Source of the DNA: a virus
Lineage: Duplodnaviria; Heunggongvirae; Uroviricota; Caudoviricetes
Strand: one strand, 5' to 3'
IMG/VR virus record: IMGVR_UViG_3300033077_000655
Length of the DNA: 64,000 nucleotides
Made by a program: the position numbers and the translations under genes. Positions 42,745 through 55,441 of this stretch are shown here, piece after piece. The notes under the pieces were generated by a model. The model made no database searches. It was not told where the DNA came from and worked only from the letters and a program-made list of their open reading frames with translations. Each line of letters begins with the position of its first letter. Position 1 is the first letter of the stretch.

Positions 42745-42819
42745 GCCCTTGTGGACAAATTGGCAAAGTCGCTTCTCTCAAAAGGAAGAGTTCTCTCGGT
42801 TCGAGTCCGAGCAAGGGTA
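42745..42819 (+). tRNA. tRNA, anticodon CAA (Leu by anticodon) but without a long variable arm
   Basis: Acceptor GCCCTTG/CAAGGGT; anticodon arm CTTCT-CTCAAAA-GGAAG; T arm CTCGG-TTCGAGT-CCGAG; CCA encoded. Confidence 0.5.
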
Positions 42820-42830
42820 CCAAAATTTAT

Positions 42831-42901
42831 AGGCGTGTGGTGTAATGGTAACACAACAGACTTTGACTCTGTCGTTCTAGGTTCGAGCCCTGGCACGTCT
42901 G
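42831..42901 (+). tRNA. tRNA-Gln (TTG)
   Basis: Acceptor AGGCGTG/CACGTCT; anticodon arm ACAGA-CTTTGAC-TCTGT; T arm CTAGG-TTCGAGC-CCTGG. Confidence 0.7.
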
Positions 42902-42930
42902 CCATGTAACAAAGACCCTTCAAACAGGAA

Positions 42931-43090
42931 GGGCTTTACAAAACAAGTTGACCAGTATCGCACATGGTGTTATACTAGAGACTAGTTAGAAAGCAACAAG
43001 ATTTGCAAAGTCCTTCCAAGTTGTAGGGCTTTACAAAACAAGTTGACCAGTATCGCACATGGTGTTATACTAGAGACTAGTTAGAAAGCA
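42931..43090 (+). repeat. two copies of a 65-bp direct repeat, each carrying a TTGACC-N17-TATACT promoter
   Basis: Copy 1 at 42931-42995 and copy 2 at 43026-43090 are identical over 65 bp. Promoter hexamers at 42948-42953/42971-42976 and 43043-43048/43066-43071. Confidence 0.7.
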
Positions 43091-43406
43091 GCACAGTGCA
43101 TCGACACTGTGCAGCAAGGTTCATTAAAAATTCAATTTTGTATAGTGTACCCAGATTCAGTTCTGGGCACTATATGTAAACATATTAGGTTACCTACACC
43201 GTTAGGTAGTTTAAGAAAGGAGCAACAGGGGCACCTGACGCAATCTTAGACCACATGAAATAGGGTACTCTTGCGTAGCTGAGAGACCACCCGGAAAAGC
43301 GACGGACTATGTAGGAAGTAATGACCGCAACAGCCTGTGAGAGATGCGCTTACAAGTGGACATAGAGTTGCAATGGTTCCTTAATGTGTTTTCATATAGT
43401 GATTTT

Positions 43407-43478
43407 GCTGCATTCGTCTATCGGTTAGGACAGCGGGTTTTCAGTCCGCTAAGAGGAGTTCGACTCTCCTATGCAGTA
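43407..43478 (+). tRNA. tRNA-Glu (TTC)
   Basis: Acceptor GCTGCAT/ATGCAGT; anticodon arm GCGGG-TTTTCAG-TCCGC; T arm AGGAG-TTCGACT-CTCCT; CCA encoded. Confidence 0.7.
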
Positions 43479-43487
43479 CCAAATTTA

Positions 43488-43559
43488 GGTGCGTTCATAT
43501 AACGGTCATTATCCTGGATTGTCTATCCAGAGACGGGAGTTCGACTCTCCCACGCATCG
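43488..43559 (+). tRNA. tRNA-Asp (GTC)
   Basis: Acceptor GGTGCGT/ACGCATC; anticodon arm CTGGA-TTGTCTA-TCCAG; T arm GGGAG-TTCGACT-CTCCC. Confidence 0.7.
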
Positions 43560-43658
43560 CCAAGTTAATGGAGAAGCGGGTGCTGCGGCATCTGTTATCC
43601 ACCATACATTAACGTCCGCTTTCCTGGCGAGTGTTATAAATACTTGTAGGAGAACACT

Positions 43659-44060
43659 ATGAGTATATCGAATGAAAAGGGAGAAATAGGAGAAGCGGCA
43701 TTTGTGCTTGCTTCTGCTAAACAAGGATACTGGACTGGTAAAATGCCACAAGGGTGTCCTTATGATTATGTGTTAGATAGACATGATGGAAAACTTTTAA
43801 GAGTTCAAGTCAAATTTAGATCGTTAGAAAGTAACGGAGTAGTTACTATTAAGCTAACGCAAAACACATTCACAAACAGAGTTTCTTACAACAAAAGCAA
43901 CATTGATTATATAGCAGTTTATGTAAATGAATTAGATAAAGTATATCTTATACCTATTACAGAAATATGTGATGTGAAAGAAGTTAAACTTCGTTGTATA
44001 GAATCTATAAAAAGAAAAGATAATAACTCTCGTATAATAACAGAATACGCAGAGTGGTAA
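43659..44060 (+). CDS. small PD-(D/E)XK-like nuclease candidate
   Basis: GEIGE...PYDYVLD...LRVQVK resembles an E...PD...(E/Q)xK arrangement. Weak. Confidence 0.3.
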   Translation: MSISNEKGEIGEAAFVLASAKQGYWTGKMPQGCPYDYVLDRHDGKLLRVQVKFRSLESNGVVTIKLTQNTFTNRVSYNKSNIDYIAVYVNELDKVYLIPITEICDVKEVKLRCIESIKRKDNNSRIITEYAEW

Positions 44061-44063
44061 TTT

Positions 44064-44135
44064 GGCCGTGTAACTCAGAGGCAGAGTAATCCCTTGATAA
44101 GGGATAAGTCGACATTTCGAAATTGTCCATGGCTA
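44064..44135 (+). tRNA. tRNA-Ile (GAT)
   Basis: Anticodon arm ATCCC-TTGATAA-GGGAT; atypical T arm GACA-TTTCGAAAT-TGTC (9-nt loop, or a T·T closing pair). Confidence 0.6.
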
Positions 44136-44148
44136 CCAATTAAATAAT

Positions 44149-44232
44149 GGAGTAGACGCCTGAGAGGAAGGGCACCCGGCTGTAACCCGGAGGTCAGCAA
44201 GTTCTGTAGAGGTTCGAACCCTCTCTGCTCCA
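44149..44232 (+). tRNA. class-II tRNA, anticodon GTA (Tyr-like)
   Basis: Acceptor GGAGTAG/CTGCTCC; anticodon loop CTGTAAC on a CCGG/CCGG stem; variable-arm hairpin CAGcaagttCTG; T arm AGAGG-TTCGAAC-CCTCT. Confidence 0.6.
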
Positions 44233-44244
44233 CCAATATAATAC

Positions 44245-44315
44245 ATCCTCCTAGTGTAATGGCAGCACTACAGTCTCCAAAACTGTCAGTCAAGGTTCGA
44301 GTCCTTGGGTCGATG
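44245..44315 (+). tRNA. tRNA-Trp (CCA)-like with two acceptor-stem mismatches
   Basis: Anticodon arm ACAGT-CTCCAAA-ACTGT; T arm CAAGG-TTCGAGT-CCTTG; acceptor ATCCTCC/GGTCGAT has C·C and T·T mismatches. A better copy lies at 52169. Confidence 0.4.
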
Positions 44316-44326
44316 CCAAACAATAT

Positions 44327-44398
44327 GGGGGCAGCAGAGGGCTGCGGAGTTGCCTTGCAAGCATCTTGTCTAGAGGGGTTCGATACCCCCGGCCTCCA
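44327..44398 (+). tRNA. tRNA-Ala (TGC)
   Basis: G3·U70 wobble in the acceptor GGGGGCA/GGCCTCC; anticodon loop CTTGCAA; T loop TTCGATA. Confidence 0.65.
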
Positions 44399-44516
44399 CC
44401 AATTTTCGGAGACTGAAACTTGCTACTTGCATCCTCTTAGATCAGGGCAAAGGCAAGCGGATAAAGTGGACGGCACATGGGGCATGCCTGTGTGTAGGCT
44501 GTCTCCATCTTTTTAT

Positions 44517-44587
44517 GCGGGGTTCGTATAGTGGTAATACCTTAGCCTTCCAAGCTAAAGCGAGGAGTTCGATTCTCCTACCCCGCT
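44517..44587 (+). tRNA. tRNA-Gly (TCC)
   Basis: Perfect acceptor GCGGGGT/ACCCCGC; anticodon arm TTAGC-CTTCCAA-GCTAA; T arm GAGGAG-TTCGATT-CTCCT. Confidence 0.85.
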
Positions 44588-44598
44588 CCAAGTTTAAT

Positions 44599-44672
44599 CT
44601 GTGTTTAGCTCAGTCTGGTAGAGTTCTTGGCCTGGAACCAAGGGGTCGTAGGTTCGAATCCTACAGCGCAGA
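44599..44672 (+). tRNA. tRNA-Pro (TGG)-like
   Basis: Anticodon arm CTTGG-CCTGGAA-CCAAG (C at position 33 is unusual); T arm GTAGG-TTCGAAT-CCTAC. Confidence 0.6.
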
Positions 44673-44680
44673 CCAATTAA

Positions 44681-44767
44681 GGAACGGTCCCATAATGGCA
44701 TTGGAGAAGATTGCTAATCTTTCGATCGTAGTAATACGGTTTCTGAGTTCGAGTCTCAGTCGTTCCG
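44681..44767 (+). tRNA. tRNA-Ser (GCT), class II
   Basis: Acceptor GGAACGG/TCGTTCC; anticodon arm GAAGA-TTGCTAA-TCTTT; variable-arm hairpin CGTAgtaaTACG; T arm CTGAG-TTCGAGT-CTCAG. Confidence 0.8.
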
Positions 44768-44777
44768 CCAATACAAT

Positions 44778-44850
44778 GCCGCGGTAGCTCATCAGGTAGA
44801 GCAGCAGACTGAAAATCTGTGTGTGGCTGGTTCGAGTCCAGCTCGTGGTA
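44778..44850 (+). tRNA. tRNA-Phe (GAA)
   Basis: D arm GCTC-ATCAGGTA-GAGC; anticodon arm GCAGA-CTGAAAA-TCTGT; T arm GCTGG-TTCGAGT-CCAGC. Confidence 0.7.
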
Positions 44851-45325
44851 CCAAGTTTATCCCTGCGTGGTGTACAAGTAGCACGACGCCGTATACACGT
44901 AAGCAGTAAGCGCAATTCTTACTCGCAGGGGCCAAGTTTATGTGTGAGAGCCGGATTAGTGACGGTGCCGATGTAGTTCGGTGAAAGGGTGAGCGAACCC
45001 ACCCCCACACACCAAGTTTTGCACCTGGCGTAATGGAAGCGTTACAGGTTAGTATCGAAAGATATACCCGAGAGGCGATGCGGGGGGTGCAGGGTTCGAT
45101 TCCCTGCGGTGCATTCAAGTTTTGTAAGTGTCAGCAAGAGAAAGACTCGCTGGGAAGATTCTTCGAAGGTCAACCCAGTGTAAAAGTAGATCCGGTTCAA
45201 ATCCGGCTAGGCTACGGAGCGTCTATGTCAGAGTATCCCAAGTGACGGACCACCTACCGTCCGGACTAGTGCATTCGGTTAAAAGGTTGCGATAACAGTG
45301 GCGCAACTACTTGCAAATTCAATCT

Positions 45326-45406
45326 GGAGATGTGGCAGAGTGGCCGATTGCGACAGACTGTAAATCTGTTCTTAACAGCGCGGTGGTTCGAATCCATCCG
45401 TCTCCA
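45326..45406 (+). tRNA. tRNA-Tyr (GTA), class II
   Basis: Acceptor GGAGATG/CGTCTCC; anticodon arm ACAGA-CTGTAAA-TCTGT; 12-nt variable region; T arm GGTGG-TTCGAAT-CCATC. Confidence 0.7.
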
Positions 45407-45433
45407 CCACACAAGAGATATATAAAGTATTAT

Positions 45434-45506
45434 TCCGACGAAGCAAACACGGTGTGGGCAGAGGACTGTTAATCCTTGAAGGCTGGTTCGATTCCAGCGG
45501 TCGGAG
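45434..45506 (+). tRNA. tRNA-Asn (GTT)-like with a weak D arm and a 7:66 mismatch
   Basis: Anticodon arm GAGGA-CTGTTAA-TCCTT; T arm GCTGG-TTCGATT-CCAGC. Confidence 0.45.
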
Positions 45507-45516
45507 CCAAATTCAA

Positions 45517-45587
45517 GCCCTATTAGTATAATGGCATTATCACGGTTTTGTAATCCGTTGACGGGAGTTCGATTCTCTCATGGGGCA
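45517..45587 (+). tRNA. tRNA-Thr (TGT)
   Basis: Acceptor GCCCTAT/ATGGGGC; anticodon loop TTTGTAA; T arm GGGAG-TTCGATT-CTCTC. Confidence 0.65.
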
Positions 45588-45595
45588 CCATACAT

Positions 45596-46245
45596 ATGAA
45601 AAAAGCATTGATATTAGGATGTAGTCATTCAGTAGGAGAGGAGATGAGTAAAGAACCAGGATTGGTTTTTAATGATTTGGCTCAGGCCACAGACTACGAG
45701 ATAACCCACTGTTATCCTGCACAAATTGCCCGAAAGCTGGGATATACCGCGTCAATCGAGGTATATCCGGAGGCAGTAACGATGCCATGTTTAGATTGTT
45801 TTTAAATGGGACATTAACACCCAACGACATAGTAATTGCTTGTTGGTCCGGAGTAGATCGAAGTGAAGTCTATGATAAAACATGGTTGCAATTATGCCCG
45901 GGTGCTCCAATACCAAAAGAAATTACTTCCGACTACTTTAAACAATGGTTGTTGTATTCAGCTAATACCGAAGTAGGTATGTTAAATAAAACAAAAAACA
46001 TACTAGCACTTAATGCATTGGCTCACGCACAAGGCATACGAGTCATAAACATAGATAGTTTTTGGCCTGTTAATTTTTGGCCTATAGTAAATTACGTCTG
46101 GCCCAACACAGTAAAATGGGCTGTGGACATTGATTTTATGTCGTGGTGCCAACGACACAACTTTCCTCATACAGAAAGAGTTCATTTTTTTAAACCAGCA
46201 CATGATTCGTTTGCCGAACATGTGCTAGAGAATATCGCGGAGTAG
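45596..46245 (+). pseudogene. SGNH-like hydrolase gene split by a frameshift in a T5 run (ORFs 45596-45805 and 45787-46245)
   Basis: ILGCSHSVGEE N-terminus parallels NGDSHTAGAE of the 22066 ORF. The two frames abut at gtttttaaa (about 45798-45803). Confidence 0.4.
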
Positions 46246-46311
46246 GGGAGTCTAGCCGTCCCCGCCAGTCTCATAAGCTGGAGATCGCAGGTGCGAATCC
46301 TGCCTCCGCAA
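46236..46311 (+). tRNA. tRNA-Met (CAT) with a C1·A72 mismatch, initiator-like
   Basis: CGCGGAG...CTCCGCA-A acceptor with unpaired C1/A72; D stem GGGG/CCCC; anticodon loop CTCATAA; T arm GCAGG-TGCGAAT-CCTGC; CCA encoded. Confidence 0.65.
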
Positions 46312-46387
46312 CCAAGTCAAGTCCATGCGTCACTCACTTTGACTGAGTGTTTGTTCCGTTATTGGAGAGTCTCTGGACTGTTTTTTT

Positions 46388-46461
46388 ACCGCCTTGGCTC
46401 AATTGGATAGAGCACTGGATTACGAATCCGGGGGTTGGGAGTTCGAATCTCTCAGGTGGTA
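46388..46461 (+). tRNA. tRNA-Arg (ACG)
   Basis: D arm GCTC-AATTGGATA-GAGC; anticodon arm CTGGA-TTACGAA-TCCGG; T arm GGGAG-TTCGAAT-CTCTC. Preceded by a T7 run. Confidence 0.75.
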
Positions 46462-46474
46462 CCAAAAATAACGG

Positions 46475-46503
46475 TTGACAACTACCGCAAAAGGTTGTAT
46501 AAT
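46475..46503 (+). promoter_or_regulatory. perfect-consensus sigma70 promoter TTGACA-N17-TATAAT
   Basis: TTGACA at 46475-46480 and TATAAT at 46498-46503. Confidence 0.6.
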
Positions 46504-46617
46504 TAACACATAAACAAAAAGGAACTATATGAAGCCAACAGCTAAACTATAGTGTCAATCATAGATCCCGTATATGGTCTTGGGTTGGCACATTAAAGAC
46601 AATTTGATATGCACAAC

Positions 46618-46689
46618 CCATGCTAAACTTTAGTGGTGAAGTAACCGGCTCTTAACCGGAGGAACAGAGTTCGAGTCTCTGAGCATGGA
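46618..46689 (+). tRNA. tRNA-Lys (CTT)
   Basis: Acceptor CCATGCT/AGCATGG; anticodon loop CTCTTAA; T arm CAGAG-TTCGAGT-CTCTG. Confidence 0.65.
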
Positions 46690-46696
46690 CCATATA

Positions 46697-46768
46697 CGGG
46701 GTATAATTCAATGGTTAGAATAGCCGGCTTTTAACCGGTCTATCACGGTTCGAGTCCGTGTGCCCCGA
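46697..46768 (+). tRNA. tRNA-Lys (TTT)
   Basis: Acceptor CGGGGTA/TGCCCCG; anticodon arm GCCGG-CTTTTAA-CCGGT; T arm CACGG-TTCGAGT-CCGTG. Confidence 0.75.
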
Positions 46769-46927
46769 CCATATAAAAACATACTGTGAGGCGCTAGTTG
46801 CATGGCGAATTTAAACAGAATGCAACCCGTCATGTAATAAGTGTACATAAAGATGATGAGCAGTGTGTTTTTATATGGTAAAACAGGAGTAATTACCCTG
46901 CACCATAATCGGGAGTCATGACCCGAT

Positions 46928-47027
46928 GAACTCGTAGTGATGGAATGGTCAAACATAGGCCTCTTATCGGGCCGGTGGAGTTAAATGCCCACTTGCAGGT
47001 TTCGAAATCCTGCCTACAATGAGTTCG
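46928..47027 (+). ncRNA. 100-nt tRNA-like RNA of unclear identity
   Basis: GAACTCG...TGAGTTC-G-CCA acceptor-like pairing; T-arm-like GCAGG-TTTCGAAAT-CCTGC; internal hairpins; no canonical anticodon arm found. Confidence 0.35.
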
Positions 47028-47110
47028 CCATATAAAAACACATTTTTAACTAGGCATGCCCCTGCAAGGGTTTAACAGCAGTTTTGAGTGTGTTTCTATA
47101 TGGTTTTATG

Positions 47111-47181
47111 TTGGCCATGGTGTAATGGAAGCACCCGACTCTGTGAAAGTCGTAGCATGGGATCGTTACCCATTGGTCAAC
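47111..47181 (+). tRNA. tRNA-His (GTG)
   Basis: G-1 at 47110 and discriminator C; anticodon arm CGACT-CTGTGAA-AGTCG; T arm ATGGG-ATCGTTA-CCCAT (A at position 54). Confidence 0.7.
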
Positions 47182-47364
47182 CCAAATTAAAGATTGTTTA
47201 TAAAACGCAAAGCTAGATTCACGTTGGTAAAATAACGCAACTGAGCTTCGGCCGTAAACACATCATACACGATGATGCAGCAAACACCGATATCGCTTAG
47301 GCTTAGATGAAAATTCAAGCCCTGTGGTGTTAGGTTTTGATAGCGTCTCACACAAGTATTTATT

Positions 47365-47436
47365 GGTCATGTGGCGTAGATGGATGCGCACCGCCCTCAT
47401 AAGGCGAGGAGGTTGGATCGATACCAACCATGACCA
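47365..47436 (+). tRNA. tRNA-Met/Ile2 (CAT)
   Basis: Perfect acceptor GGTCATG/CATGACC; anticodon loop CTCATAA; T arm GTTGG-ATCGATA-CCAAC. Confidence 0.7.
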
Positions 47437-47440
47437 CCAT

Positions 47441-47513
47441 GCCCTGGTGACGGAATGGCATACGTACTGGTCTTAGAAACCAGGTTCTGTGGGTTCGAGT
47501 CCCACCTAGGGCA
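47441..47513 (+). tRNA. tRNA with anticodon TAG (Leu by anticodon) but class-I length
   Basis: Acceptor GCCCTGG/CTAGGGC; perfect anticodon arm CTGGT-CTTAGAA-ACCAG; T arm GTGGG-TTCGAGT-CCCAC. Confidence 0.6.
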
Positions 47514-47526
47514 CCATGATTAGTTT

Positions 47527-47598
47527 GGGGGATTGATATAGTTGGAAACATACTGTCATGGCATGGCAGCATCAGCAGTTCGAATCTGCTATCCTCCA
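47527..47598 (+). tRNA. tRNA-Ala (GGC)
   Basis: G3·U70 in the acceptor GGGGGAT/ATCCTCC; anticodon arm CTGTC-ATGGCAT-GGCAG; T arm AGCAG-TTCGAAT-CTGCT. Confidence 0.7.
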
Positions 47599-47668
47599 CC
47601 AACGCAGACTCTTGGTTCAATGGTAGAACGGTATTACTATAAATAGTATTCTACCATTGGAGAATAAG

Positions 47669-48055
47669 ATGCCAAAACCAAAAATCCATCCTCGCATATA
47701 TAATTGTATTCATTGTGGAACAGAGAATGAATGGACCACAAAAAAGAATAATAAGTTTTGTAACCATTCTTGTCAGCAAAATTATAGATGGATAAATGAA
47801 ACAAAACCATTGATAGAATCTGGGAAAAAAAATACAAACAATTTTAGAGCCTTACTAAAATATGTCAAAGAACGAGATGGCTATAAATGTAAAATTTGTG
47901 ATTTAACCAATTGGCAAGGAAACCCTATATCATTGGATTTAGATCACATAGATGGAAATAATAAAAACAATTTTCCAAGTAACCTACGATTGTTATGTCC
48001 TAACTGTCATAGGCAAACTCCTACTTGGGGTAATAAAACTCGTTCTGGTCTATAG
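47669..48055 (+). CDS. HNH homing endonuclease
   Basis: LDLDHIDGNNKNN...LRLLCPNCH. Start set at the ATG at 47669, which has a GGAG RBS. Confidence 0.7.
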   Translation: MPKPKIHPRIYNCIHCGTENEWTTKKNNKFCNHSCQQNYRWINETKPLIESGKKNTNNFRALLKYVKERDGYKCKICDLTNWQGNPISLDLDHIDGNNKNNFPSNLRLLCPNCHRQTPTWGNKTRSGL

Positions 48056-48117
48056 ATTAGCGGTAAATCGTTACGTTGACATCGTAAAGATCACTGGTTC
48101 GATTCCAGTTAGACCAA
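48046..48117 (+). tRNA. tRNA-Val (GAC)
   Basis: Perfect acceptor TGGTCTA/TAGACCA; anticodon arm TTACG-TTGACAT-CGTAA; T arm ACTGG-TTCGATT-CCAGT. Overlaps the HNH stop. Confidence 0.75.
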
Positions 48118-48121
48118 CCAG

Positions 48122-48150
48122 TTGACAAGTATCACAAGTGATGCTATAAT
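48122..48150 (+). promoter_or_regulatory. consensus promoter TTGACA-N17-TATAAT
   Basis: TTGACA at 48122-48127 and TATAAT at 48145-48150; the spacer contains the palindrome ATCACAAGTGAT. Confidence 0.55.
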
Positions 48151-48358
48151 TGCAGCATGTTAAGAAATTAACATACGCTCATTAAAAATTTATTGATATA
48201 AAGACTGGAAACAGTCCAAGTCTTTATATCCACATGCACAAATGCCTTGCGCAGGCAGATGTAGCGGATTACAGCTCTGGTCAATCCGGGGTAGGCAGGT
48301 TCAATTCCTGCAAGTGTATGTGGATATAGAGATTTTGATAATTCAAAATAAAAAATTT

Positions 48359-48431
48359 GCCTGGTTGCGTAGAGAGGTTATACGTCTCCTTTACACGGAG
48401 AGCGATGACAGTTCGAGTCTGTCACCAGGTA
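48359..48431 (+). tRNA. tRNA-Val (TAC)
   Basis: Acceptor GCCTGGT/ACCAGGT; anticodon arm TCTCC-TTTACAC-GGAGA; T arm GACAG-TTCGAGT-CTGTC. Confidence 0.75.
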
Positions 48432-48438
48432 CCAATAT

Positions 48439-48513: not shown

Positions 48514-48523
48514 CCACATAATC

Positions 48524-48594: not shown

Positions 48595-48601
48595 CCAACA
48601 A

Positions 48602-48688: not shown

Positions 48689-48692
48689 CCAG

Positions 48693-48767: not shown

Positions 48768-48783
48768 CTCATAAATAAATTAC

Positions 48784-50310: not shown

Positions 50311-50319
50311 CCCAAACAT

Positions 50320-50391
50320 CTGGCGTTAGTATAATGGATAATACAGGGGATTTCTACTCCCTAGATAGCAGTTCGATTCTGTTACGCCGGA
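50320..50391 (+). tRNA. tRNA-Arg (TCT)
   Basis: Acceptor CTGGCGT/ACGCCGG; D arm GTAT-AATGGAT-AATAC; anticodon arm GGGGA-TTTCTAC-TCCCT; T arm AGCAG-TTCGATT-CTGTT. Confidence 0.65.
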
Positions 50392-50401
50392 CCAGCCAAA
50401 T

Positions 50402-50490
50402 GCCAGCGAGACTTGGAAGTCAGAGAGGTCTTATACGCCTTTTAGCCCCAGATTAGGGTTCTTGAGAGAGTTCGATCCTCTCCGCTGGTA
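50402..50490 (+). tRNA. class-II-length tRNA of uncertain identity (possible anticodon TAT)
   Basis: Acceptor GCCAGCG/CGCTGGT; T arm GAGAG-TTCGATC-CTCTC; variable-arm hairpin AGCCCcagattaGGGTT; best anticodon arm GAGGT-CTTATAC-GCCTT (two G·U pairs). Confidence 0.45.
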
Positions 50491-50507
50491 CCACACATAA
50501 GTAATGA

Positions 50508-52154
50508 ATGTTTAATAATAAAAAACCTAATGTTATTTTAATTACAGATTCTACTGATATAATTTCTTTAAACATTCTACTTGGGCCATTTAAAGTAGCA
50601 CATGTTCTTAAAGAGCATGGAATAGAAGTTGCAATGATACATCATGCATCAGCATTGTCATTTAAAGAAATAACTACTATTCTCAAAGAGATAATATCTG
50701 ATCAAACTTTGTTGGTGGGTATAAACAATTTCTATTATTCTTCCATTGAACTTAATAAAGATAATGGCAGTGATGGCATGACATTAAAAGAAATTGACCC
50801 AGGTAGTTTTTTACCTCATGGAAAAAGCAAAAATATTGAGTTAAAAACACTGATTAAATCATTGAATCCCAAAACCAAAATAGTGCTTGGCGGTGTGACT
50901 GCATTAGATACCAAGTACAACAAAGATTTTGATTATCTTGTGTTAGGATACGCCGAAACTGCAATATTGGATCTGGTGGATCATCTTAGGTCATCGTCTC
51001 CTATAGAAAAAAGTTATAAAAGTATCTATGGGCCAATAGTGCTGACAGACAAGGTAGCGTCTAGATATGATTTTTCATCATCCCATATGCGGTATGATCC
51101 AGACTGGTCAATACTGCCTGGATCAACATTTCATCTAGAATTAGGTCGTGGATGCATTTTTAAATGTGCATTTTGCGCTTATCCTTTCAATGGAAAAAAG
51201 AAAACTGATTATATTAGATCAAAAGAATCTATTCAGGCTGAGATGATAGACAATTACAACAGATTTGGTGTCACACGTTATTTGATGGGTGACGATACGT
51301 TTAACGACAACGTTGATAAATGCCGAATGATTTATGAAATATCCCAAGAACTTCCATTTAAATTAGAGTACTGGGCGTATTTGAGATTAGACCTGCTGAC
51401 GGCACATCCTGAAACAATAGATTATTTGTTTGACAGCGGCTTAAAAGCGGCGTTTTTTGGTATTGAAACTCTGAACCCCAAGACTGCATCTATAATAGGC
51501 AAAGGTGGCAATCGAGATAAAATGTTTAAAACTATAGCTGATATTAAATCTAAGTGGGGTGATTTAGTTTCGTTAGCCGCTGGGTTTATTTATGGATTAC
51601 CCGAAGAAGATTTAGATAGCCTACAACGCACAACTGATTTTTTGATCAGTGACCAAAACAAACTAGATCAGTGGCTAGTTGAAGCTTTAAACATACGCCC
51701 TACCGTTGATTATGATAATAGCTTTATCAGCGATATAGAAAAAAATTATGAAAAATATGGTTATAGTAAAATAGACAACCACACTCGTCCAGGTGGGTCC
51801 AATATAGGCACTGATCGCCGACGACATGCTATAGTCTGGAAGAATAAACACACAGACTATTACTCTGTTTTAAACATTACCGAAGCACTGAATGCTAGAA
51901 TAAAACCACACTTGAAAATTCCCGGCGATGCGGCTCTCCTGTTGAGTGGGCTAGGCATAGATTTAGACCAACTATTAAACAAACAACATGACCAAGTGCC
52001 GTGGAATAAACTAGATCAACTACATTTAAAAAAAGTTTTTGAGTATAAAAAACTCTTAGCTAAGAATTTAAATTTTGATATTAATCTCATTGACATGAAA
52101 ATTTTGCATCACAAAACGTACGGTAATTATCTCAAAGCAATGTTTGAAAAATAA
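50508..52154 (+). CDS. B12-binding-domain radical SAM protein (paralog 2)
   Basis: GRGCIFKCAFCAY; domain order as in 48784..50310. Confidence 0.7.
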   Translation: MFNNKKPNVILITDSTDIISLNILLGPFKVAHVLKEHGIEVAMIHHASALSFKEITTILKEIISDQTLLVGINNFYYSSIELNKDNGSDGMTLKEIDPGSFLPHGKSKNIELKTLIKSLNPKTKIVLGGVTALDTKYNKDFDYLVLGYAETAILDLVDHLRSSSPIEKSYKSIYGPIVLTDKVASRYDFSSSHMRYDPDWSILPGSTFHLELGRGCIFKCAFCAYPFNGKKKTDYIRSKESIQAEMIDNYNRFGVTRYLMGDDTFNDNVDKCRMIYEISQELPFKLEYWAYLRLDLLTAHPETIDYLFDSGLKAAFFGIETLNPKTASIIGKGGNRDKMFKTIADIKSKWGDLVSLAAGFIYGLPEEDLDSLQRTTDFLISDQNKLDQWLVEALNIRPTVDYDNSFISDIEKNYEKYGYSKIDNHTRPGGSNIGTDRRRHAIVWKNKHTDYYSVLNITEALNARIKPHLKIPGDAALLLSGLGIDLDQLLNKQHDQVPWNKLDQLHLKKVFEYKKLLAKNLNFDINLIDMKILHHKTYGNYLKAMFEK

Positions 52155-52168
52155 CATTTTCCAAAAAT

Positions 52169-52239
52169 GTATCCATAGTGTAATGGCAGCATCGCGGTCT
52201 CCAAAACCGTCAGTCTAGGTTCGAGTCCTAGTGGGTACG
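52169..52239 (+). tRNA. tRNA-Trp (CCA)
   Basis: Acceptor GTATCCA/TGGGTAC; anticodon arm GCGGT-CTCCAAA-ACCGT; T arm CTAGG-TTCGAGT-CCTAG. Confidence 0.7.
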
Positions 52240-52259
52240 CCAATCAAAGAAAGTAAATT

Positions 52260-52742
52260 ATGAAAAAAATGGACATGACTCAGGTTAAAGAATACATTAC
52301 TGCTCAAAGTCCAGAAACTGCGGTATATCTGGGCTGCGACAGCGAACGAGTAAAGATCAATGGCGTATGGTACGCAGACTATGCTCTGGCTGTGGTTGTA
52401 CACATTGATAGCTGCCATGGTTGCAAAATCTTTGGTGAGGTACAACGTGAACGTGACTGGGATCAACGCAGCGACAAACCTGCCATGAGACTGATGAACG
52501 AAGTATACAAGGTTTCCGAACTGTTCCAAAAGATGAGTGATGTGCTGGAAGATCGTCTTGTGGAAGTACACTTGGACATCAACCCTGATCAGATGCACAA
52601 GAGCTCAGTGGTAGTAAATCAAGCCATTGGTTACATCAAAGGCACTTGCAACGTGATACCGATGGTCAAGCCTCGAGCCTTTGCTGCCAGCTATGCTGCT
52701 GACAGACTGGATTGGGTGTTGAGCAATCGCCGAGCAGCTTAA
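52260..52742 (+). CDS. hypothetical protein
   Basis: ORF with an RBS; 160 aa; no clear motif. Confidence 0.4.
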   Translation: MKKMDMTQVKEYITAQSPETAVYLGCDSERVKINGVWYADYALAVVVHIDSCHGCKIFGEVQRERDWDQRSDKPAMRLMNEVYKVSELFQKMSDVLEDRLVEVHLDINPDQMHKSSVVVNQAIGYIKGTCNVIPMVKPRAFAASYAADRLDWVLSNRRAA

Positions 52743-53048
52743 CCAAAACAGTTGATCTCTATTGCTGTTTTGCATATAATTAGTTTTTGTCAGCGAAAGC
52801 TGGCAGGCAAGAATCAAGTAGATTAGAACAGACAATAGTTGGATTATTCCGACTCAGCCTTAACAGCTGAAACTTAAAATGGCCTCCGGGGAAACCTGGA
52901 TCGTGCTTGTGTGACCCGGTCCTATTATAGACATCTGCACTTTGATAACCGGACATACGCAGGCCACTGTGGTTTGTATTTTGCATGTTGCATATTGCAC
53001 CTTGCTCAGTCTGCGACTTGACTTGGGTCTTGCCACCCTTATTGTTTA

Positions 53049-53633
53049 ATGAAAGAAATTATGAAAATTAATCTACGTAAAGCCAACGCATTGCAACTGA
53101 GTGTTCAGGAAGCAATCAAAGGTATCAAATTTGATACCGAAGTCAAGATCAACGAATTTCAAGTGGCAGAAGATGTGATTGCCAAGGCACGTGAAGACTT
53201 TGCCGTGAAGCAAGAACGGCACCGTGGGCTGCTAAACAGCCTGTACGATATCCGCAAGGCAGTGAGCCAGGCTAATAGTGCCCAAGGTGTAGATGTCAAG
53301 CTGGCCGATGTGGCCTTGATGGACAAGAAGATCCAGTACCTGGCTGATCTAGCCGGCAAAAGTACACGTGACAGCGCAGAGGTTGTGGCCGGTAAGATGG
53401 AAAAATTGCGTAATCGCAAGGAAAGCAACAGCTCTTTGTACTACGGGCACGATGCCACTGTGGACACTTCTATCTTTACTCAAGAAGATATCACAGGATT
53501 CCGTACAGCAGTGAGCCTGGGCAAGAAAGCCAAACAGAAGTTGCAAGACGAATTGTTGGAGATCAATGTTCGTACCGAGATTGAGCTTGGTGCTGATGCG
53601 GTTACTGTGTTGACTACAGAAGGTCTTCTATAG
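53049..53633 (+). CDS. hypothetical protein
   Basis: ORF; predicted helical. Confidence 0.4.
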   Translation: MKEIMKINLRKANALQLSVQEAIKGIKFDTEVKINEFQVAEDVIAKAREDFAVKQERHRGLLNSLYDIRKAVSQANSAQGVDVKLADVALMDKKIQYLADLAGKSTRDSAEVVAGKMEKLRNRKESNSSLYYGHDATVDTSIFTQEDITGFRTAVSLGKKAKQKLQDELLEINVRTEIELGADAVTVLTTEGLL

Positions 53634-53898
53634 GCCCAAGCCTGTGAAGAATGTTTGTTGCTCGAGTTCTAAGTCTCATTGAGAATTCGGCCTCGGTCAA
53701 CACACCTTTTGCTAGATTACACTTACGGCAAGTCACTTGTAGATTGTGGTAAGTGGTTGAGCCACCTTTTGATTCAGGAACCACATGATCCATATGGATC
53801 TCAGAATCAGACAGGTCCTCGTCACAGTACACACAACGCAAGCCATCGCGTTCAATGATTCTGCGACGAAGATTCAATGGGATACGTTGTTTTAGCAT
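53614..53898 (-). CDS. HNH endonuclease (McrA-like)
   Basis: CVYCDEDL...HMDHVVPESKGG...NLQVTCRKCNLAKG. Confidence 0.6.
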   Translation of the reverse strand: MLKQRIPLNLRRRIIERDGLRCVYCDEDLSDSEIHMDHVVPESKGGSTTYHNLQVTCRKCNLAKGVLTEAEFSMRLRTRATNILHRLGPIEDLL

Positions 53899-53951
53899 GA
53901 CAACTATTTATTAGTCAACAGATTACGTATTTGAATATATAGTAGCATAAG

Positions 53952-54023
53952 CGGGCATGGTGCTAGTGGTAACACATATCCTTGCCAAGGATAAGTTGCG
54001 GGTTCGATTCCCGCTGCCCGCTC
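53952..54023 (+). tRNA. tRNA-Gly (GCC)
   Basis: Perfect acceptor GCGGGCA/TGCCCGC; anticodon arm TATCC-TTGCCAA-GGATA; T arm GCGGG-TTCGATT-CCCGC. Confidence 0.85.
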
Positions 54024-54171
54024 CAAAGCAGCGGCGAAGTCTCATTCGCCAGTATGAGTCACTAAGGTAGTCAACTAATCCTTAGGGCAAGCAATAGTAC
54101 ACGAATGCAATGAGATAGGCGGTAGTGATCTACTCACCGGGACGGGCCTCAAAACCGCATCCCACTAATTT

Positions 54172-54260
54172 GGAGAGTAATGCAGCGGGGATGGTCCTGC
54201 GACTGGCCTTGAAAACCAGGTTCTCAGAAATGGGATGGGGTTCGACTCCTCTGCTCTCCG
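54172..54260 (+). tRNA. tRNA-Ser (TGA), class II
   Basis: Acceptor GGAGAGT/GCTCTCC; D stem GCAG/CTGC; anticodon loop CTTGAAA; long variable arm; T loop TTCGACT. Confidence 0.7.
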
Positions 54261-54334
54261 CCAGACAACACGGCCCTGCCCTCTGTGTAACTGCCACTCC
54301 CAGAAGTTGTTGCATACGGTAGGGTTTTTCTTTA

Positions 54335-54406
54335 GGGCTCTTAGTTCAACGGATAGAATACGAGTCTTCGAAACTCAAGATGCAAGTTCGATTCTTGCAG
54401 AGCCCA
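54335..54406 (+). tRNA. tRNA-Arg (TCG)
   Basis: Perfect acceptor GGGCTCT/AGAGCCC; anticodon loop CTTCGAA; T arm GCAAG-TTCGATT-CTTGC. Confidence 0.65.
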
Positions 54407-54409
54407 CCA

Positions 54410-55273
54410 TCAATGTTGATTCATAATGTACCACAGTGGAAGATCGGATCCGTATAACTTCCATAGTGTTGAATAATACTCGTAAGATTTCAAGTGACAA
54501 TATATCTCTTGCGGAACGTCTAAGGTTGAAGAAAAAGGTTTTTCCACCAATAACGGAATATTATAAACTGAATCAGTTAGTCTAGAGAATAGTACATTTT
54601 CAACTGTTGCAAATCTAAAAAGTTTAGGACTGGCTGGGTTGTCGTCTGGATTATCAAGTATTTCAAAATTAAAATTTAAAGAATCTATCCAGTGTCGATC
54701 TAGTATTTTTTTAACGTAGCCACGTTTAAATAATCCAGCACCACCAAAATCATCCCATCGTCTTTTTCGCAATTGCAGAGTTGGTATTTCAAATTTGCTT
54801 GGATCATGAGCCAATACAGAATTGTTGGTCAATCCTGCTGACCAATTGTTAATACGTACCAGTTGTATACATTCCCACTCTTGAGGTAAATTATCTAGTA
54901 ATTCTTGCCAGGTAAAACTCCAGTGATCAATGCTTTCAAAACTCATGTCGTCATCGCAAAATATTGCATATTCTTCATTGGTGTTGTCATACCAATGGCG
55001 CATTGCAGTCAAGTAACTGATAACTGTGCCCGGATGGCTGAATCCTTGAAACATAGCAGCATGCTGGTGTGTAATGTCAGGCCATGTAATATTAACGTTA
55101 TGTGCAAACACAGTGTACCTGTTATTCAACCATATCATGTAATATATACCATATCTAGTCAACTGCTCATTCATGAACTCCATTCGAGCCACGTTTTCGT
55201 AAAGAGTGATATAATTTACAGCAGGGAAGTTAGTTAGCTTGGTCATAATGTAAGCATATTTATTTCCGTGCAT
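54410..55273 (-). CDS. hypothetical protein (possible GT-A-like, CDDD motif)
   Basis: 287-aa ORF on the minus strand, between tRNA genes. Confidence 0.4.
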   Translation of the reverse strand: MHGNKYAYIMTKLTNFPAVNYITLYENVARMEFMNEQLTRYGIYYMIWLNNRYTVFAHNVNITWPDITHQHAAMFQGFSHPGTVISYLTAMRHWYDNTNEEYAIFCDDDMSFESIDHWSFTWQELLDNLPQEWECIQLVRINNWSAGLTNNSVLAHDPSKFEIPTLQLRKRRWDDFGGAGLFKRGYVKKILDRHWIDSLNFNFEILDNPDDNPASPKLFRFATVENVLFSRLTDSVYNIPLLVEKPFSSTLDVPQEIYCHLKSYEYYSTLWKLYGSDLPLWYIMNQH

Positions 55274-55293
55274 ATTTGATGTTTAAAATATAT

Positions 55294-55365
55294 CTCTGCA
55301 TAGTTCAATGGATAGAACAAGTCTTTCCTAAAGACAAAATATCAGTTCAATTCTGGTTGCAGAGA
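55294..55365 (+). tRNA. tRNA-Arg (CCT)
   Basis: Perfect acceptor CTCTGCA/TGCAGAG; D arm GTTC-AATGGATA-GAAC; anticodon loop TTCCTAA; T loop TTCAATT. Confidence 0.65.
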
Positions 55366-55370
55366 CCACA

Positions 55371-55441
55371 GCTCTTATAGTATAATGGCAATACACGTCC
55401 TTGGTAAGGACGAGTTACAAGTTCGATTCTTGTTAGGAGCA
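55371..55441 (+). tRNA. tRNA-Thr (GGT)
   Basis: Acceptor GCTCTTA/TAGGAGC; anticodon arm CGTCC-TTGGTAA-GGACG; T arm ACAAG-TTCGATT-CTTGT. Confidence 0.8.

Follow-up and report, generated by a model that had tools for sequence, protein, structure and literature searches.

A tRNA island with non-canonical tRNAs and tRNA-shaped RNAs in a probable jumbo phage genome

The window analysed here, a 64,000-nt stretch of IMGVR_UViG_3300033077_000655 (Caudoviricetes), contains a tRNA array of ~12.7 kb (42745–55444). ARAGORN at default settings called 35 tRNAs in the array, all on the plus strand, compared with none in 30 dinucleotide-preserving shuffles of the region, and 33 of the 35 were independently backed by Rfam RF00005 at the gathering threshold. 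A lower ARAGORN threshold (-ps90; 0.13 calls per shuffle) added tRNA-Ala(UGC), an (8/4) tRNA-Ser(UGA), a degenerate Arg-UCU gene and a weak tRNA-like call (46931–47021). Since one default call ("Cys-ACA") had no Rfam support and its proposed anticodon arm is not conserved among homologues, the array holds 36 credible tRNA genes, not 37, with 32 different anticodons and all 20 amino acids represented. One chimeric pseudo-tRNA, one tRNA 5' remnant and two tRNA-shaped RNAs accompany them. An earlier note made from the sequence alone had counted 37 tRNA-like genes plus a degenerate copy; the array is real and the automated finder accepted most of its genes, but the 37 include one tRNA-shaped RNA that does not decode. 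The note's coverage of all 20 amino acids holds, and its multiplicities were all correct (two genes each for Lys, Val, Ala, Gly, Thr and Ser and four for Arg in the array, and three with CAU in the window). It had omitted the two genes each for Tyr, Trp, Pro and Ile and the three for Leu.

Most of the genes are of ordinary form (ARAGORN calls on the plus strand, given with coordinates and Rfam scores in bits). The array opens with tRNA-Leu(CAA) (42745–42822, 54.0), which is 78 nt long with intact stems, A73 and CCA and is without a long variable arm, followed by Gln(UUG) (42831–42904, 62.2), Glu(UUC) (43407–43481, 49.5), Asp(GUC) (43488–43562, 50.5), Ile(GAU) (44064–44138, 51.9) and a class II Tyr(GUA) (44149–44235, 38.2). 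The first Trp(CCA) copy (44245–44318, 49.8) has two acceptor-stem mismatches and is possibly in decay. Beyond it lie Gly(UCC) (44517–44590, 59.5), the first Pro(UGG) (44599–44675, 59.3), class II Ser(GCU) (44681–44770, 43.8), Phe(GAA) (44778–44853, 59.1), the second Tyr(GUA) (45326–45409, 58.1), Asn(GUU) (45434–45509) and Thr(UGU) (45517–45590, 56.0). A tRNA(CAU) at 46236–46314 (50.5) has the C1xA72 mismatch that is an initiator hallmark, yet is without the three G:C pairs of the anticodon stem. It precedes Arg(ACG) (46388–46464, 61.0), Lys(CUU) (46618–46692), Lys(UUU) (46697–46771, 65.2) and His(GUG) (47110–47184, 46.3); Asn(GUU) and Lys(CUU) are both low-scoring, at 33.3 bits.

The second tRNA(CAU) of the array (47365–47439, 50.3) is either elongator Met or Ile2, and is followed by Leu(UAG) (47441–47516, 60.0; 76 nt, also without a long variable arm), Ala(GGC) (47527–47601, 43.7) and Val(GAC) (48046–48120, 69.0), which overlaps the end of an HNH ORF by 10 nt. 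Next come Val(UAC) (48359–48434, 46.8), Cys(GCA) (48439–48516, 58.9), the second Pro(UGG) (48524–48597, 62.6), class II Leu(UAA) (48602–48691, 64.4), an intact Arg(UCU) (50320–50394, 58.1), an intact second Trp(CCA) (52169–52242, 57.1), Gly(GCC) (53951–54025, 59.9), Arg(UCG) (54335–54409, 65.6), Arg(CCU) (55294–55368, 58.1) and Thr(GGU) (55371–55444, 67.0). An isolated tRNA(CAU), labelled Met-CAU by ARAGORN, lies 9.7 kb upstream of the array (32920–32997, 59.0).

CCA is encoded in every array tRNA and the spacers are often 0–10 nt, in line with the head-to-tail packing described earlier. Stems are perfect or near-perfect in 35 of the 36 genes, and acceptor and T stems are intact in all but one. 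Discriminators match bacterial identity rules, with U73 in Gly and Cys, G73 in Ser, Gln, Asp, Asn and Trp, and an encoded G-1 opposite C73 in His; both Ala tRNAs carry G3:U70.

The strong promoters claimed for the array were recovered by a promoter scan as two perfect sigma-70 consensus sequences (TTGACA-N17-TATAAT), one upstream of the Lys tRNAs (46475–46503) and one with an extended TG (48122–48150), both on the plus strand. The relative L160 has a near-identical promoter sequence at the place matching the latter. The whole window has three perfect matches versus 0.09 expected by chance, and the excess is limited to these, as overall counts of promoter-like and terminator-like sequences were not above chance. 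A direct repeat of ~65 nt is present in two copies (42934–43092, plus strand), each with a promoter-like TTGACC-N17-TATACT and an extended TG (hexamers at 42948–42976 and 43043–43071).

Three tRNAs on the plus strand have a non-canonical shape. The tRNA-Ala(UGC) (44327–44401; called at 44326–44400 with -ps90), skipped by default ARAGORN and without an Rfam match, has a 3-bp D stem with a 4-nt loop, a 6-bp anticodon stem and a 4-bp T stem (8/4-like). Across 16 distinct homologues 98.4% of cells are paired and 13 of 19 pairs show both-side changes, and G3:U70 is present in 16/16 sequences from related viral contigs. The tRNA-Ser(UGA) (54172–54263; -ps90 call, with an Rfam tRNA-Sec match of 34.9 bits, below the gathering score) has an 8-bp acceptor stem, a 4-bp T stem, a long variable arm and G73. 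Among 85 distinct sequences from related viral contigs, 69 have A-U and 16 have G-C as the eighth acceptor pair, and PHB09 has a homologue of this tRNA. The 92-nt tRNA(UAU) (50402–50493), called by ARAGORN and with a Phosso homologue, matched no Rfam family; it combines a long variable arm with a 7/5 branch, a 4-bp D stem and 4-nt loop, a 7-bp anticodon stem, A73 and CCA. In related viral contigs it is 99.4% paired, with both-side changes in 18 of 26 pairs. Compensatory changes in related contigs thus confirm, at the level of sequence, all three as genuine non-canonical tRNAs, and tRNA(UAU) is most likely a tRNA-Ile for AUA. In total, at least five decoders have shapes unusual for their class, which are conserved in many phage contigs.

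Other tRNA-like elements, also on the plus strand, are of different kinds. The "Cys-ACA" call (48234–48320) lies within a conserved tRNA-shaped RNA with homologues (48226–48327) that is closed by a 14-bp stem and has four hairpins, one of them a canonical T arm. It is without CCA and matches no Rfam family; it was rejected as a tRNA and is not a decoder. The weak -ps90 call belongs to an irregular tRNA-like RNA (46925–47030) with a 10-bp closing stem containing a 3-nt bulge, a D-like arm, a variable arm and a T arm; it has no Rfam family, and its "anticodon" loop differs in the homologue in L009. The degenerate copy (48692–48767; RF00005 at 48692–48764, 31.8 bits; -ps90 call) is indeed a defective tRNA-like gene, with three acceptor and two T-stem mismatches, but it is not a simply decayed duplicate. 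About 60 nt of Arg-UCU at its 5' end are joined at the T loop to a Leu-UAA 3' end of the type found in relatives, which makes it a recombination chimera. Finally, a 29-nt Val-GAC 5' remnant (47605–47633), spanning the acceptor strand, the D arm and the start of the anticodon stem, lies upstream of the HNH segment; the allele is intact in L160 and L137.

The HNH, PD-(D/E)XK and three radical-SAM genes reported among the tRNAs were all confirmed (plus strand). The PD-(D/E)XK endonuclease ORF (43659–44060, 133 aa; Pfam PF11645, 1.5e-18) forms one insertion with Ile-GAU (about 43577–44146), which is missing in the close relative L160 and carries a ~10-nt repeat at its junction. The HNH ORF (47657–48055, 132 aa; PHROG 10822, 2.7e-25, and weak Pfam HNH) sits in a segment (47634–48061) missing in L160 and L137, and the adjoining Val-GAC allele (48046) differs from that of these HNH-less relatives. 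Two B12-binding radical-SAM ORFs (Pfam and NCBIfam), 35% identical to each other, lie between Leu-UAA and Arg-UCU (48784–50310, 508 aa) and between tRNA(UAU) and Trp (50508–52154, 548 aa). L009, L132 and L023 have a contiguous Cys-Pro-Leu-Arg-Ile(UAU)-Trp order without either ORF, the first is also missing in L137, and L129 has a radical-SAM homologue in another tRNA spacer. Judged against these close relatives, which are without them, all four genes are insertions. A third, small radical-SAM ORF (41985–42743, 252 aa; Pfam and NCBIfam) stops 1 nt short of the first tRNA. An RNase H-like ORF (52260–52742; Pfam PF04308, PHROG 11311) has homologues by tblastn inside tRNA arrays at 42 fetched loci, and a glucosyltransferase-like ORF of 287 aa (54410–55273; PHROG 2835, 2e-21) is on the minus strand.

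The window also encodes a family-B DNA polymerase (3788–6454) that shares 48.6% identity with the enzyme of Sinorhizobium phage Phosso, 46.4% with that of Agrobacterium phage Atu_ph07 and ~42% with those of Rak2-like jumbo phages. Parts of the array recur in more than 130 IMG/VR viral contigs, and syntenic arrays occur in close relatives; together with the polymerase kinship, these support a phage origin. A two-piece (permuted) tmRNA with the tag ANDSVYSLAA lies at 62007–62386 on the plus strand (ARAGORN 62024–62386; Rfam beta_tmRNA 125 and tmRNA_permuted 120.8 bits), followed by a terminator hairpin. Two scans of genome collections gave no host signal.

In the 69 ORFs of the window GC3 is 0.38, and the usually rare A-ending codons AUA, AGA, UUA and CUA are common (16.6, 9.8, 17.0 and 12.1 per thousand, respectively); a U34 anticodon exists for each. 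The array set spans every codon box rather than rare codons only, and with ordinary wobble its 32 anticodons could suffice for all 61 sense codons.

Based on the gene content, structures, conservation and insertion polymorphisms observed, we consider it likely (probability about 0.85) that an uncultivated jumbo phage, kin to Phosso and Atu_ph07, carries this region as its tRNA island, with a decoding set of its own and mobile cargo between the tRNAs. From the sequences we infer how the island tRNAs may be transcribed, processed and charged, and what selective benefit they might confer. Host-type sigma-70 promoters would drive several polycistronic tRNA precursors, host RNase P would cut each 5' end, 3' exonucleases would trim to the encoded CCA, and host aminoacyl-tRNA synthetases would charge the products. 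The island would thereby give the phage a decoding capacity of its own that suits its AT-rich genes and keeps translation going when host tRNAs are a poor match, run short or are cleaved. The interspersed homing-type HNH, PD-(D/E)XK and B12-radical-SAM genes would be mobile cargo outside this function, entering tRNA spacers or tRNA genes themselves, usually as a unit of an ORF plus its downstream tRNA, and leaving 5' tRNA fragments behind; the degenerate Arg copy at 48692 may be one such scar.

It is possible, although we hold it only tentatively, that the island serves mainly in counter-defence, replacing host tRNAs cut by anticodon nucleases or depleted in infection, with the odd shapes (8/4 Ser and Ala, long-arm Ile, short-arm Leu) letting the phage copies escape. 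Coverage of all codon boxes is better explained by insurance against general loss than by simple codon compensation, the unusual shapes of at least five decoders are conserved, and it has been argued that changes in the anticodon loop let phage tRNAs escape tRNA-targeting defences (PMC10264068). However, the odd tRNAs have ordinary-looking anticodon loops (CUUGAAA in Ser-UGA), and this explanation overlaps the main one rather than excluding it. An array that is largely selfish or decaying, in which homing endonucleases and T-loop recombination carry and duplicate tRNAs of which few matter for translation, is unlikely. Cassettes of an endonuclease or other ORF do travel together with the neighbouring tRNA, leaving fragments behind; Tyr, Trp and Pro genes occur in duplicate, with one Trp acceptor stem damaged, and gene order varies widely among relatives. 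Against this, 35 of the 36 tRNAs combine sound stems with correct identity elements, stems have changed in a compensatory manner while anticodons stayed fixed, and distant relatives carry the same set of anticodons.

Charging of the long-arm tRNA(UAU) with a class-II amino acid (Ser or Leu), which would take AUA outside the standard code, seems very improbable. A long variable arm is the chief mark of bacterial Ser, Leu and Tyr tRNAs, A73 is compatible with Leu, and allo-tRNAs that combine a UAU anticodon with Ser-like features are on record (PMC5389517). Yet the discriminator is A73 rather than G73 and the branch 7/5 rather than 8/4, and the residues of relatives that align with 124 AUA sites (I 0.28, L 0.19, V 0.17, S 0.03) follow the I/V/L pattern of ATT and ATC sites, unlike Leu or Ser codons; AUA thus appears to be read by the standard code. 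We give almost no credence to a bacterial segment, from a chromosomal or plasmid tRNA array. Some bacteria do have such arrays, and 13 contigs of the genome collection, mostly from metagenome bins, contain a 19-mer of the 8/4 Ser tRNA, but these are scattered over unrelated phyla, a pattern that binned phage contigs would give. Moreover, the polymerase is of jumbo-phage type, and although the phage isolate collection had no close DNA match to the window, many IMG/VR viral contigs did.

The island of this probable jumbo phage is therefore of an already known type, as such phages have been documented with 33–67 tRNA genes. Huge phages have up to 67 tRNAs, plus tmRNAs (PMC7162821), XacN1 has 56 covering all 20 amino acids (PMC5852040) and AP-J-162 has 66 with a tmRNA (PMC11242549); the very large, near-complete complement noted earlier stands, yet is not exceptional beside these. 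Of particular interest beyond that are its non-canonical tRNAs and tRNA-like RNAs.

ARAGORN with default settings reported 37 genes in the entire window, 35 of which are tRNAs between 42745 and 55444, every one on the + strand; a tRNA(CAU) at 32920 was called outside this array. The earlier note had described, by eye, 37 tRNA-like genes plus one degenerate copy at 42745-55441, and the 35 calls indicate that its folds were not mis-pairings. Against the Rfam tRNA model RF00005, a covariance model independent of ARAGORN with a curated gathering score of 29 bits, 33 of the 35 array tRNAs scored 33-69 bits, and a weak additional match was obtained at 48692-48764 (31.8 bits). ARAGORN made no default call in 30 dinucleotide-preserving shuffles of 42745-55444, and 0.13 calls per shuffle at a lowered threshold (-ps90) in the same set. 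The array is not due to chance or hand mis-pairing.

At -ps90, four calls were gained, i.e., Ala(UGC) at 44326-44400, a degenerate Arg(UCU) at 48696-48767, and two to which no isotype was assigned (46931-47021 and 54172-54263). The -ps90 tRNA-Gln(CUG) on the minus strand (22591-22668) sits inside an ORF and was discarded as a false positive. We count 36 credible tRNAs with 32 distinct anticodons, representing 20 of the 20 amino acids. Thus, the large array is upheld by ARAGORN, Rfam and the shuffles, and so is the coverage of all amino acids, but the number seen by eye is not, with 36 tRNAs remaining and ARAGORN's 'Cys-ACA' call (48234-48320) failing. Three credible tRNAs (Ala-UGC, tRNA(UAU) and Ser-UGA) missed the RF00005 gathering score.

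The 36 genes are predicted to produce mature aminoacylated tRNAs. CCA is encoded at the 3' end in 36/36 and the genes are closely packed, both of which had been noticed by eye for many of them, with spacers of 0-10 nt within tRNA clusters. Acceptor and T stems are clean or nearly so in 35, the sole exception being Trp copy 1 (44245), with two acceptor mismatches. Discriminator bases obey bacterial identity rules across the array tRNAs, with U73 in the Gly and Cys tRNAs, G73 in those for Ser, Gln, Asp, Asn and Trp, C73 opposite an encoded G-1 in tRNA-His, and A73 in the two Ala genes, which both also have G3:U70. At 46236, the tRNA(CAU) shows the initiator-type C1xA72 mismatch, without the three G:C pairs; its T loop reads TGCGAAT. 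The first T-loop position is A, not T, in tRNA-His (47111-47184; ATCGTTA) and in the tRNA(CAU) at 47365-47439 (ATCGATA).

Several decoders depart from the canonical shape. The stretch at 54172-54263 is, as predicted from its fold, an (8/4) tRNA-Ser(UGA), because it has an eighth acceptor pair, a CUUGAAA anticodon loop and a long variable arm. The 8-bp acceptor and the 4-bp T stem (GGGG/CCUC) form a 12-bp branch, and the variable arm is a long hairpin with compensatory changes. In 85 distinct homologues, the eighth position is always paired (69 A-U, 16 G-C), and G73 is found in 79 of the 85; further compensations occur among homologues in the acceptor and anticodon stems. An unannotated stretch in the tRNA array of Pseudomonas phage PHB09 is 87% identical, with three pairs changed on both sides, and the D-arm core is present in >119 IMG/VR contigs. 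A 19-mer of this tRNA was detected in 13 contigs of the genome collection, spread over unrelated phyla. The (8/4) tRNA-Ser class was reported in phages and proteobacteria by Mukai et al. 2017 (PMC5389517), and its 8-bp acceptor, 4-bp T stem, long variable arm and G73 are shared here; unlike the tRNAs of that study, it has a D loop of 11 nt in place of a long stem and tetraloop.

The true frame of Ala-UGC is 44327-44401. Among 16 distinct homologues, 98.4% of cells were paired and 13 of 19 pairs were changed on both sides, while G3:U70 and the UGC anticodon were invariant. Its shape is odd: the D stem has 3 bp and a 4-nt loop, the anticodon stem has 6 bp and the T stem 4 bp. Some allo-tRNAs (PMC5389517) have the same T-stem and anticodon-stem lengths, together with a tetraloop D arm and G3:U70.

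The third tRNA missed by Rfam, tRNA(UAU), is a 92-nt gene (50402-50493) that ARAGORN assigned to Ile(UAU) and whose homologue in Sinorhizobium phage Phosso is annotated as tRNA-Ile(tat). Its variable-arm core was found in 17 IMG/VR contigs. Across 12 distinct sequences, 99.4% of cells were paired, 18 of 26 pairs were changed on both sides, and UAU, A37, A73 and CCA were invariant. The fold has a 7/5 branch, with 4 bp in the D stem, 4-5 nt in the D loop and 7 bp in the anticodon stem, and its variable arm is long; all seven acceptor and five T-stem pairs covary, and position 8 stands unpaired opposite C. An allo-tRNA-UAU (Mukai et al. 2017, PMC5389517) was considered and rejected, given that the branch is 7/5 rather than 8/4 or 9/3 and that the discriminator is A73. 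The invariant UAU anticodon and the isoleucine-like behavior of AUA codons are further differences from it.

This behavior was assessed by aligning all window ORFs to fetched relatives and tabulating the residues opposite each codon, with subject ATA codons omitted. At 124 AUA sites, the opposing residues were I (0.28), L (0.19), V (0.17), T (0.13) and S (0.03). The corresponding values opposite ATT were I 0.53, V 0.17 and L 0.12, whereas Leu codons faced L at 0.51-0.67 and V at about 0.05, and Ser codons faced S at 0.37-0.54. Since the AUA profile is similar to those of ATT and ATC, AUA acts as an isoleucine codon. The residue profile excludes serine (S 0.03) and makes leucine unlikely, and a reassignment of AUA was rejected. 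Together with the conserved anticodon, the Ile-like AUA positions point to tRNA(UAU) as a predicted tRNA-Ile reading AUA.

A long variable arm is a normal feature of bacterial Leu tRNAs. Two of the three Leu tRNAs in the array, Leu(CAA) (42745-42822; 78 nt) and Leu(UAG) (47441-47516; 76 nt), lack one, whereas the AUA reader has gained one. Leu genes with the same CAA/UAG anticodons and similarly short lengths were also called in L160, one of the loci fetched from related IMG/VR viral contigs (designated by L and a number).

In 69 non-overlapping window ORFs (16,673 codons), GC3 was 0.38, and A-ending codons were in free use, with AUA, AGA, UUA, CUA and CAA at 16.6, 9.8, 17.0, 12.1 and 30.1 per thousand, respectively. 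The 32 anticodons cover every codon box, with four-way reading by U34 needed only for CUC, UCC and CCC. Two related loci carry tRNAs with a CUA anticodon (amber suppressor, labeled 'Pyl' by ARAGORN; L009 2627-2703 and L114 3711-3803). No such tRNA was found in the window, where TAG is the stop of 6 of the 69 ORFs.

The description of the array as interleaved with HNH, PD-(D/E)XK and three radical-SAM genes was confirmed by PHROG and Pfam domain matches. The HNH ORF (47657-48055) matches PHROG 10822 at 2.7e-25, with weak Pfam HNH matches, and the PD-(D/E)XK ORF (43659-44060) matches Pfam PF11645 at 1.5e-18. The radical-SAM genes encode a small protein (41985-42743) and two B12-binding proteins (48784-50310 and 50508-52154) that reached no curated NCBIfam family cut-off. 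With a KedN5-like gene at 16459-18465 (NCBIfam 2.3e-77, below cut-off), the window has four radical-SAM genes, three of them B12-binding.

Comparison with close relatives revealed how these genes are placed. The segment containing the HNH ORF (47634-48061) is missing from L160 and L137, whose flanks are 94-97% identical to the window and in which 3-4 nt separate Ala-GGC from an intact Val-GAC downstream. The window retains only the first ~29 nt of this type of Val-GAC (47605-47633), followed by the HNH ORF and then by another allele of Val-GAC, which overlaps the end of the ORF. Likewise, 43577-44146, with the PD-(D/E)XK gene and Ile-GAU, is missing from L160, where Asp is directly followed by Tyr; in the window, its junctions have a common ~10-nt repeat that includes the first Tyr bases. 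Given their nuclease domains and their presence/absence polymorphism, with sharp junctions, between close relatives, both are predicted to be free-standing homing endonucleases in a phage tRNA cluster.

The B12-radical-SAM genes follow a related pattern. The order Cys-Pro-Leu(UAA)-Arg(UCU)-Ile(UAU)-Trp is contiguous in three relatives (L009, L132 and L023); in the window, one of these genes splits Leu from Arg and the other splits Ile(UAU) from Trp, with flanks of ≤16 nt each. In L129, a 43%-identical radical-SAM gene occupies another spacer, the one separating the (8/4) Ser from Arg-UCG. Over its first ~60 nt, the degenerate Arg copy (48692-48767) matches the intact Arg-UCU almost perfectly; its last 16 nt, CCGGCCAGTTGCACCA, are unrelated to that gene and equal the 3' end of the relatives' Leu-UAA within 1-2 mismatches. 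Because it joins an Arg-UCU 5' part to a Leu-UAA-type 3' end, the copy is an Arg/Leu chimera, with the joint inside shared T-loop sequence. The defective tRNA copy seen by eye thus stands, but as a chimera.

Two other origins of this copy were weighed. A plain tandem duplicate of Arg-UCU would fit the first ~60 nt, but the 3' end matches the relatives' Leu-UAA, and this origin was rejected. An integrase att site was also rejected, with no integrase present. The two radical-SAM proteins are only 35% identical, which was counted against both plain duplication and an att-site origin. We interpret the Arg/Leu chimera as a scar that recombination left when a 'radical-SAM plus Arg-UCU' unit entered. 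The same layout, a tRNA 5' fragment followed by an ORF and then an intact tRNA, is repeated in the HNH, PD-(D/E)XK and first radical-SAM cases, and the interspersed protein genes appear, from these sequence comparisons, to be mobile cargo. An RNase H-like protein (52260-52742; Pfam PF04308, PHROG 11311) has tblastn homologues in 42 fetched tRNA-array loci, and its gene adjoins Trp in close relatives; a connection with the processing of tRNA or other RNA is possible.

Free-standing homing endonuclease genes lie between tRNA genes in phages T4 (SegB, a GIY-YIG type) and T5 (HNH enzymes), and the T4 tRNA cluster includes a tRNA-Ile reading AUA and small stable RNAs of unknown function. As in these phages, endonucleases lie between the tRNAs here and are present or absent among close relatives, with flanking tRNA alleles that differ accordingly. 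In contrast to T4 SegB, the putative homing enzymes are of HNH and PD-(D/E)XK type. The insertions also differ from those of T4 and T5 in that they leave tRNAs partly duplicated and that radical-SAM genes, which encode no nuclease, occupy sites of the same kind.

The claim of strong promoters in the array was borne out by perfect consensus matches. Promoter-like sites in total were at chance level (42 observed vs 39.9 expected), but the array contains two perfect TTGACA-N17-TATAAT sites (46475 and 48122). Across the window there are three perfect matches vs 0.09 expected, a number reached by no shuffle. The site at 48122 is conserved in L160 and lies ~75 nt upstream of a tRNA-shaped RNA (48226-48327). 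Two more promoter-like sites, with extended -10, occur in a ~65-nt direct repeat (42934-42998 and 43028-43092), after which comes a 300-nt non-coding stretch (43100-43400) with strong hairpins, part of it ~90% identical to L114, that may be a leader or another RNA. Because bacterial and T4 tRNA operons are processed in this way, the array tRNAs would be transcribed as polycistronic precursors, cleaved by RNase P and then trimmed at the 3' end to the encoded CCA.

The true span of the 'Cys-ACA' element is 48226-48327, with a 14-bp closing stem (14-18 bp across homologues) and no CCA. We rejected it as a tRNA because it lacks an NCCA end, its closing stem is not 7 bp and the anticodon arm is not kept in homologues; RF00005 gave no match to 48234-48320. 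Its 17-nt core was found in 33 IMG/VR contigs, with two of the matching stretches not being homologues; L009, L132 and L136-L166 are among the loci with a homologue. For 19 distinct homologues, RNAalifold predicted a long closing stem and four hairpins including a canonical T arm, with 15 of 29 pairs changed on both sides. The hairpins are a 5-bp one, UGUA-GCGGAU-UACA, whose invariance is partly owed to its use as a search pattern, a 7-bp one with a variable loop of 4-13 nt, and the T arm. A tRNA call lies on the same strand within ~800 nt of the homologue in 27 of 28 loci checked, and for 26 the distance is at most 350 nt. Calls made 33-35 nt from the core, variously named Gln, Lys or Leu by ARAGORN, probably overlap the element itself. 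No credible Rfam family was obtained for 48226-48327 at permissive thresholds, and blastn of 48225-48330 against deposited phage isolates gave no match.

The element resembles the Y RNAs YrlA and Yrn1 (PMC4201824) in its long closing helix and its D-like and T arms. Yrn1 has its closing helix where a tRNA has the acceptor stem, and also a short hairpin with a 6-nt loop (PMC4201824); both are features of 48226-48327. A YrlA-type Y RNA was rejected, however, as there was no YrlA match at E ≤ 10 and the GNCGAA motif is absent; no TROVE/Ro gene was detected among the window ORFs scanned with Pfam. Unlike bacterial Y RNAs, the element lies inside or next to tRNA arrays.

An irregular second tRNA-shaped RNA occupies 46925-47030. 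It is closed by a 10-bp stem carrying a 3-nt bulge, and it too has a D-like and a T arm, plus a variable arm. It was found only in close relatives; its 'anticodon' loop differs in L009, and the bases 3' of it are GCCA in the window and GCTA in L009. It also had no credible Rfam family at permissive thresholds. Both RNAs would keep the tRNA elbow and swap the acceptor end for a long helix, and could serve as decoys or scaffolds for tRNA-binding proteins such as defence nucleases, RNase P or a Y-RNA-like partner. Decoders of altered shape, i.e., the (8/4) Ser and the Ala, the long-arm Ile and the short-arm Leu tRNAs, may join the same arms race over tRNA recognition. We consider it rather unlikely, though worth stating, that these are one or more new families of non-decoding tRNA-shaped RNAs acting as mimics in that race, 48226-48327 being the clearest case, and elbow mimicry by 48226-48327 and 46925-47030 is put forward as a hypothesis only.

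At near-identity, the region 42000-56000 gave only short tRNA-sized matches and no relative among 50,697 deposited phage records. Pieces of the array are common to many IMG/VR contigs (75-97% identity), and the stretches fetched from these relatives have 15-36 tRNAs. The family-B DNA polymerase (3788-6454), compared along 100% of its length, shares 48.6% identity with its counterpart in Sinorhizobium phage Phosso (469 kb) and 46.4% with the one in Agrobacterium phage Atu_ph07 (490 kb); identity to the Rak2-like jumbo phage enzymes is ~42%. This protein in the 64-kb window suggests a phage near the Atu_ph07/Phosso jumbo group. A 901-aa ORF (395-3100) had no match among phages.

The window also encodes a two-piece (permuted) tmRNA (62007-62386; ARAGORN call at 62024-62386) of the betaproteobacterial Rfam type, with the tag ANDSVYSLAA, whose end is ALAA-like, scoring 125 bits for beta_tmRNA (gathering 84) and 120.8 bits for tmRNA_permuted (gathering 47), and a terminator hairpin (62341-62364) at its 3' end. 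The tag in L114 is ANDELFALAA, and no SmpB gene was detected among the window ORFs scanned. The encoded G-1:C73 of tRNA-His and the beta-type tmRNA are weak hints of the host. On both sides of the array (11060-13184 and 55585-61988) are sugar-modification clusters with glycosyltransferases, NAD-dependent epimerases/dehydratases, a C-methyltransferase, split transketolase-like subunits and further methyltransferases, which may modify DNA or surface glycans. A TctA-family tricarboxylate transporter subunit (35978-37282; Pfam 1.5e-39) had no close relative in the genome collection. Neither this protein nor the Ser-UGA 19-mer gave a host signal in that collection.

Large phage tRNA sets are already documented. 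Huge phages have up to 67 tRNAs, with tmRNAs (PMC7162821), Xanthomonas phage XacN1 has 56 (PMC5852040), and Sinorhizobium phage AP-J-162 and Atu_ph07 have 66 plus a tmRNA and 33, respectively (PMC11242549). The very large complement noticed by eye is confirmed at 36 tRNAs, against the 33-67 carried by published phages. Like the jumbo and huge-phage islands, the array has dozens of co-oriented tRNAs for all or nearly all amino acids, often with a tmRNA, and it shares the long-arm tRNA(UAU) with Phosso. Its tRNAs are packed more densely than in the examined part of Phosso, whose tRNA genes are spread out between ORFs, and the array differs from known islands in holding B12-radical-SAM insertions and in having no deposited relative at the nucleotide level. 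Candidate selective reasons for such sets are codon matching, insurance against host tRNA loss, and evasion of tRNA-targeting defences (PMC10264068).

The window is one more example of the near-complete decoding sets carried by very large phages. Four features go beyond the ordinary: a tRNA-Ile(UAU) whose long arm is conserved, Leu tRNAs with short arms, the T-loop chimera and other insertion scars, and the tRNA-shaped RNAs absent from Rfam. Because default tRNA finders overlook real, conserved non-canonical phage tRNAs (Ala-UGC and Ser-UGA) and call a non-tRNA RNA tRNA-Cys, phage tRNA counts and claims of 'missing' amino acids can err. The tRNA-shaped RNAs are candidates for a new phage RNA class. 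Against close relatives, the rebuilding of the island is visible, with endonuclease and radical-SAM cassettes inserted at tRNA genes and tRNAs left chimeric or truncated by their entry, one junction falling in the conserved T loop.
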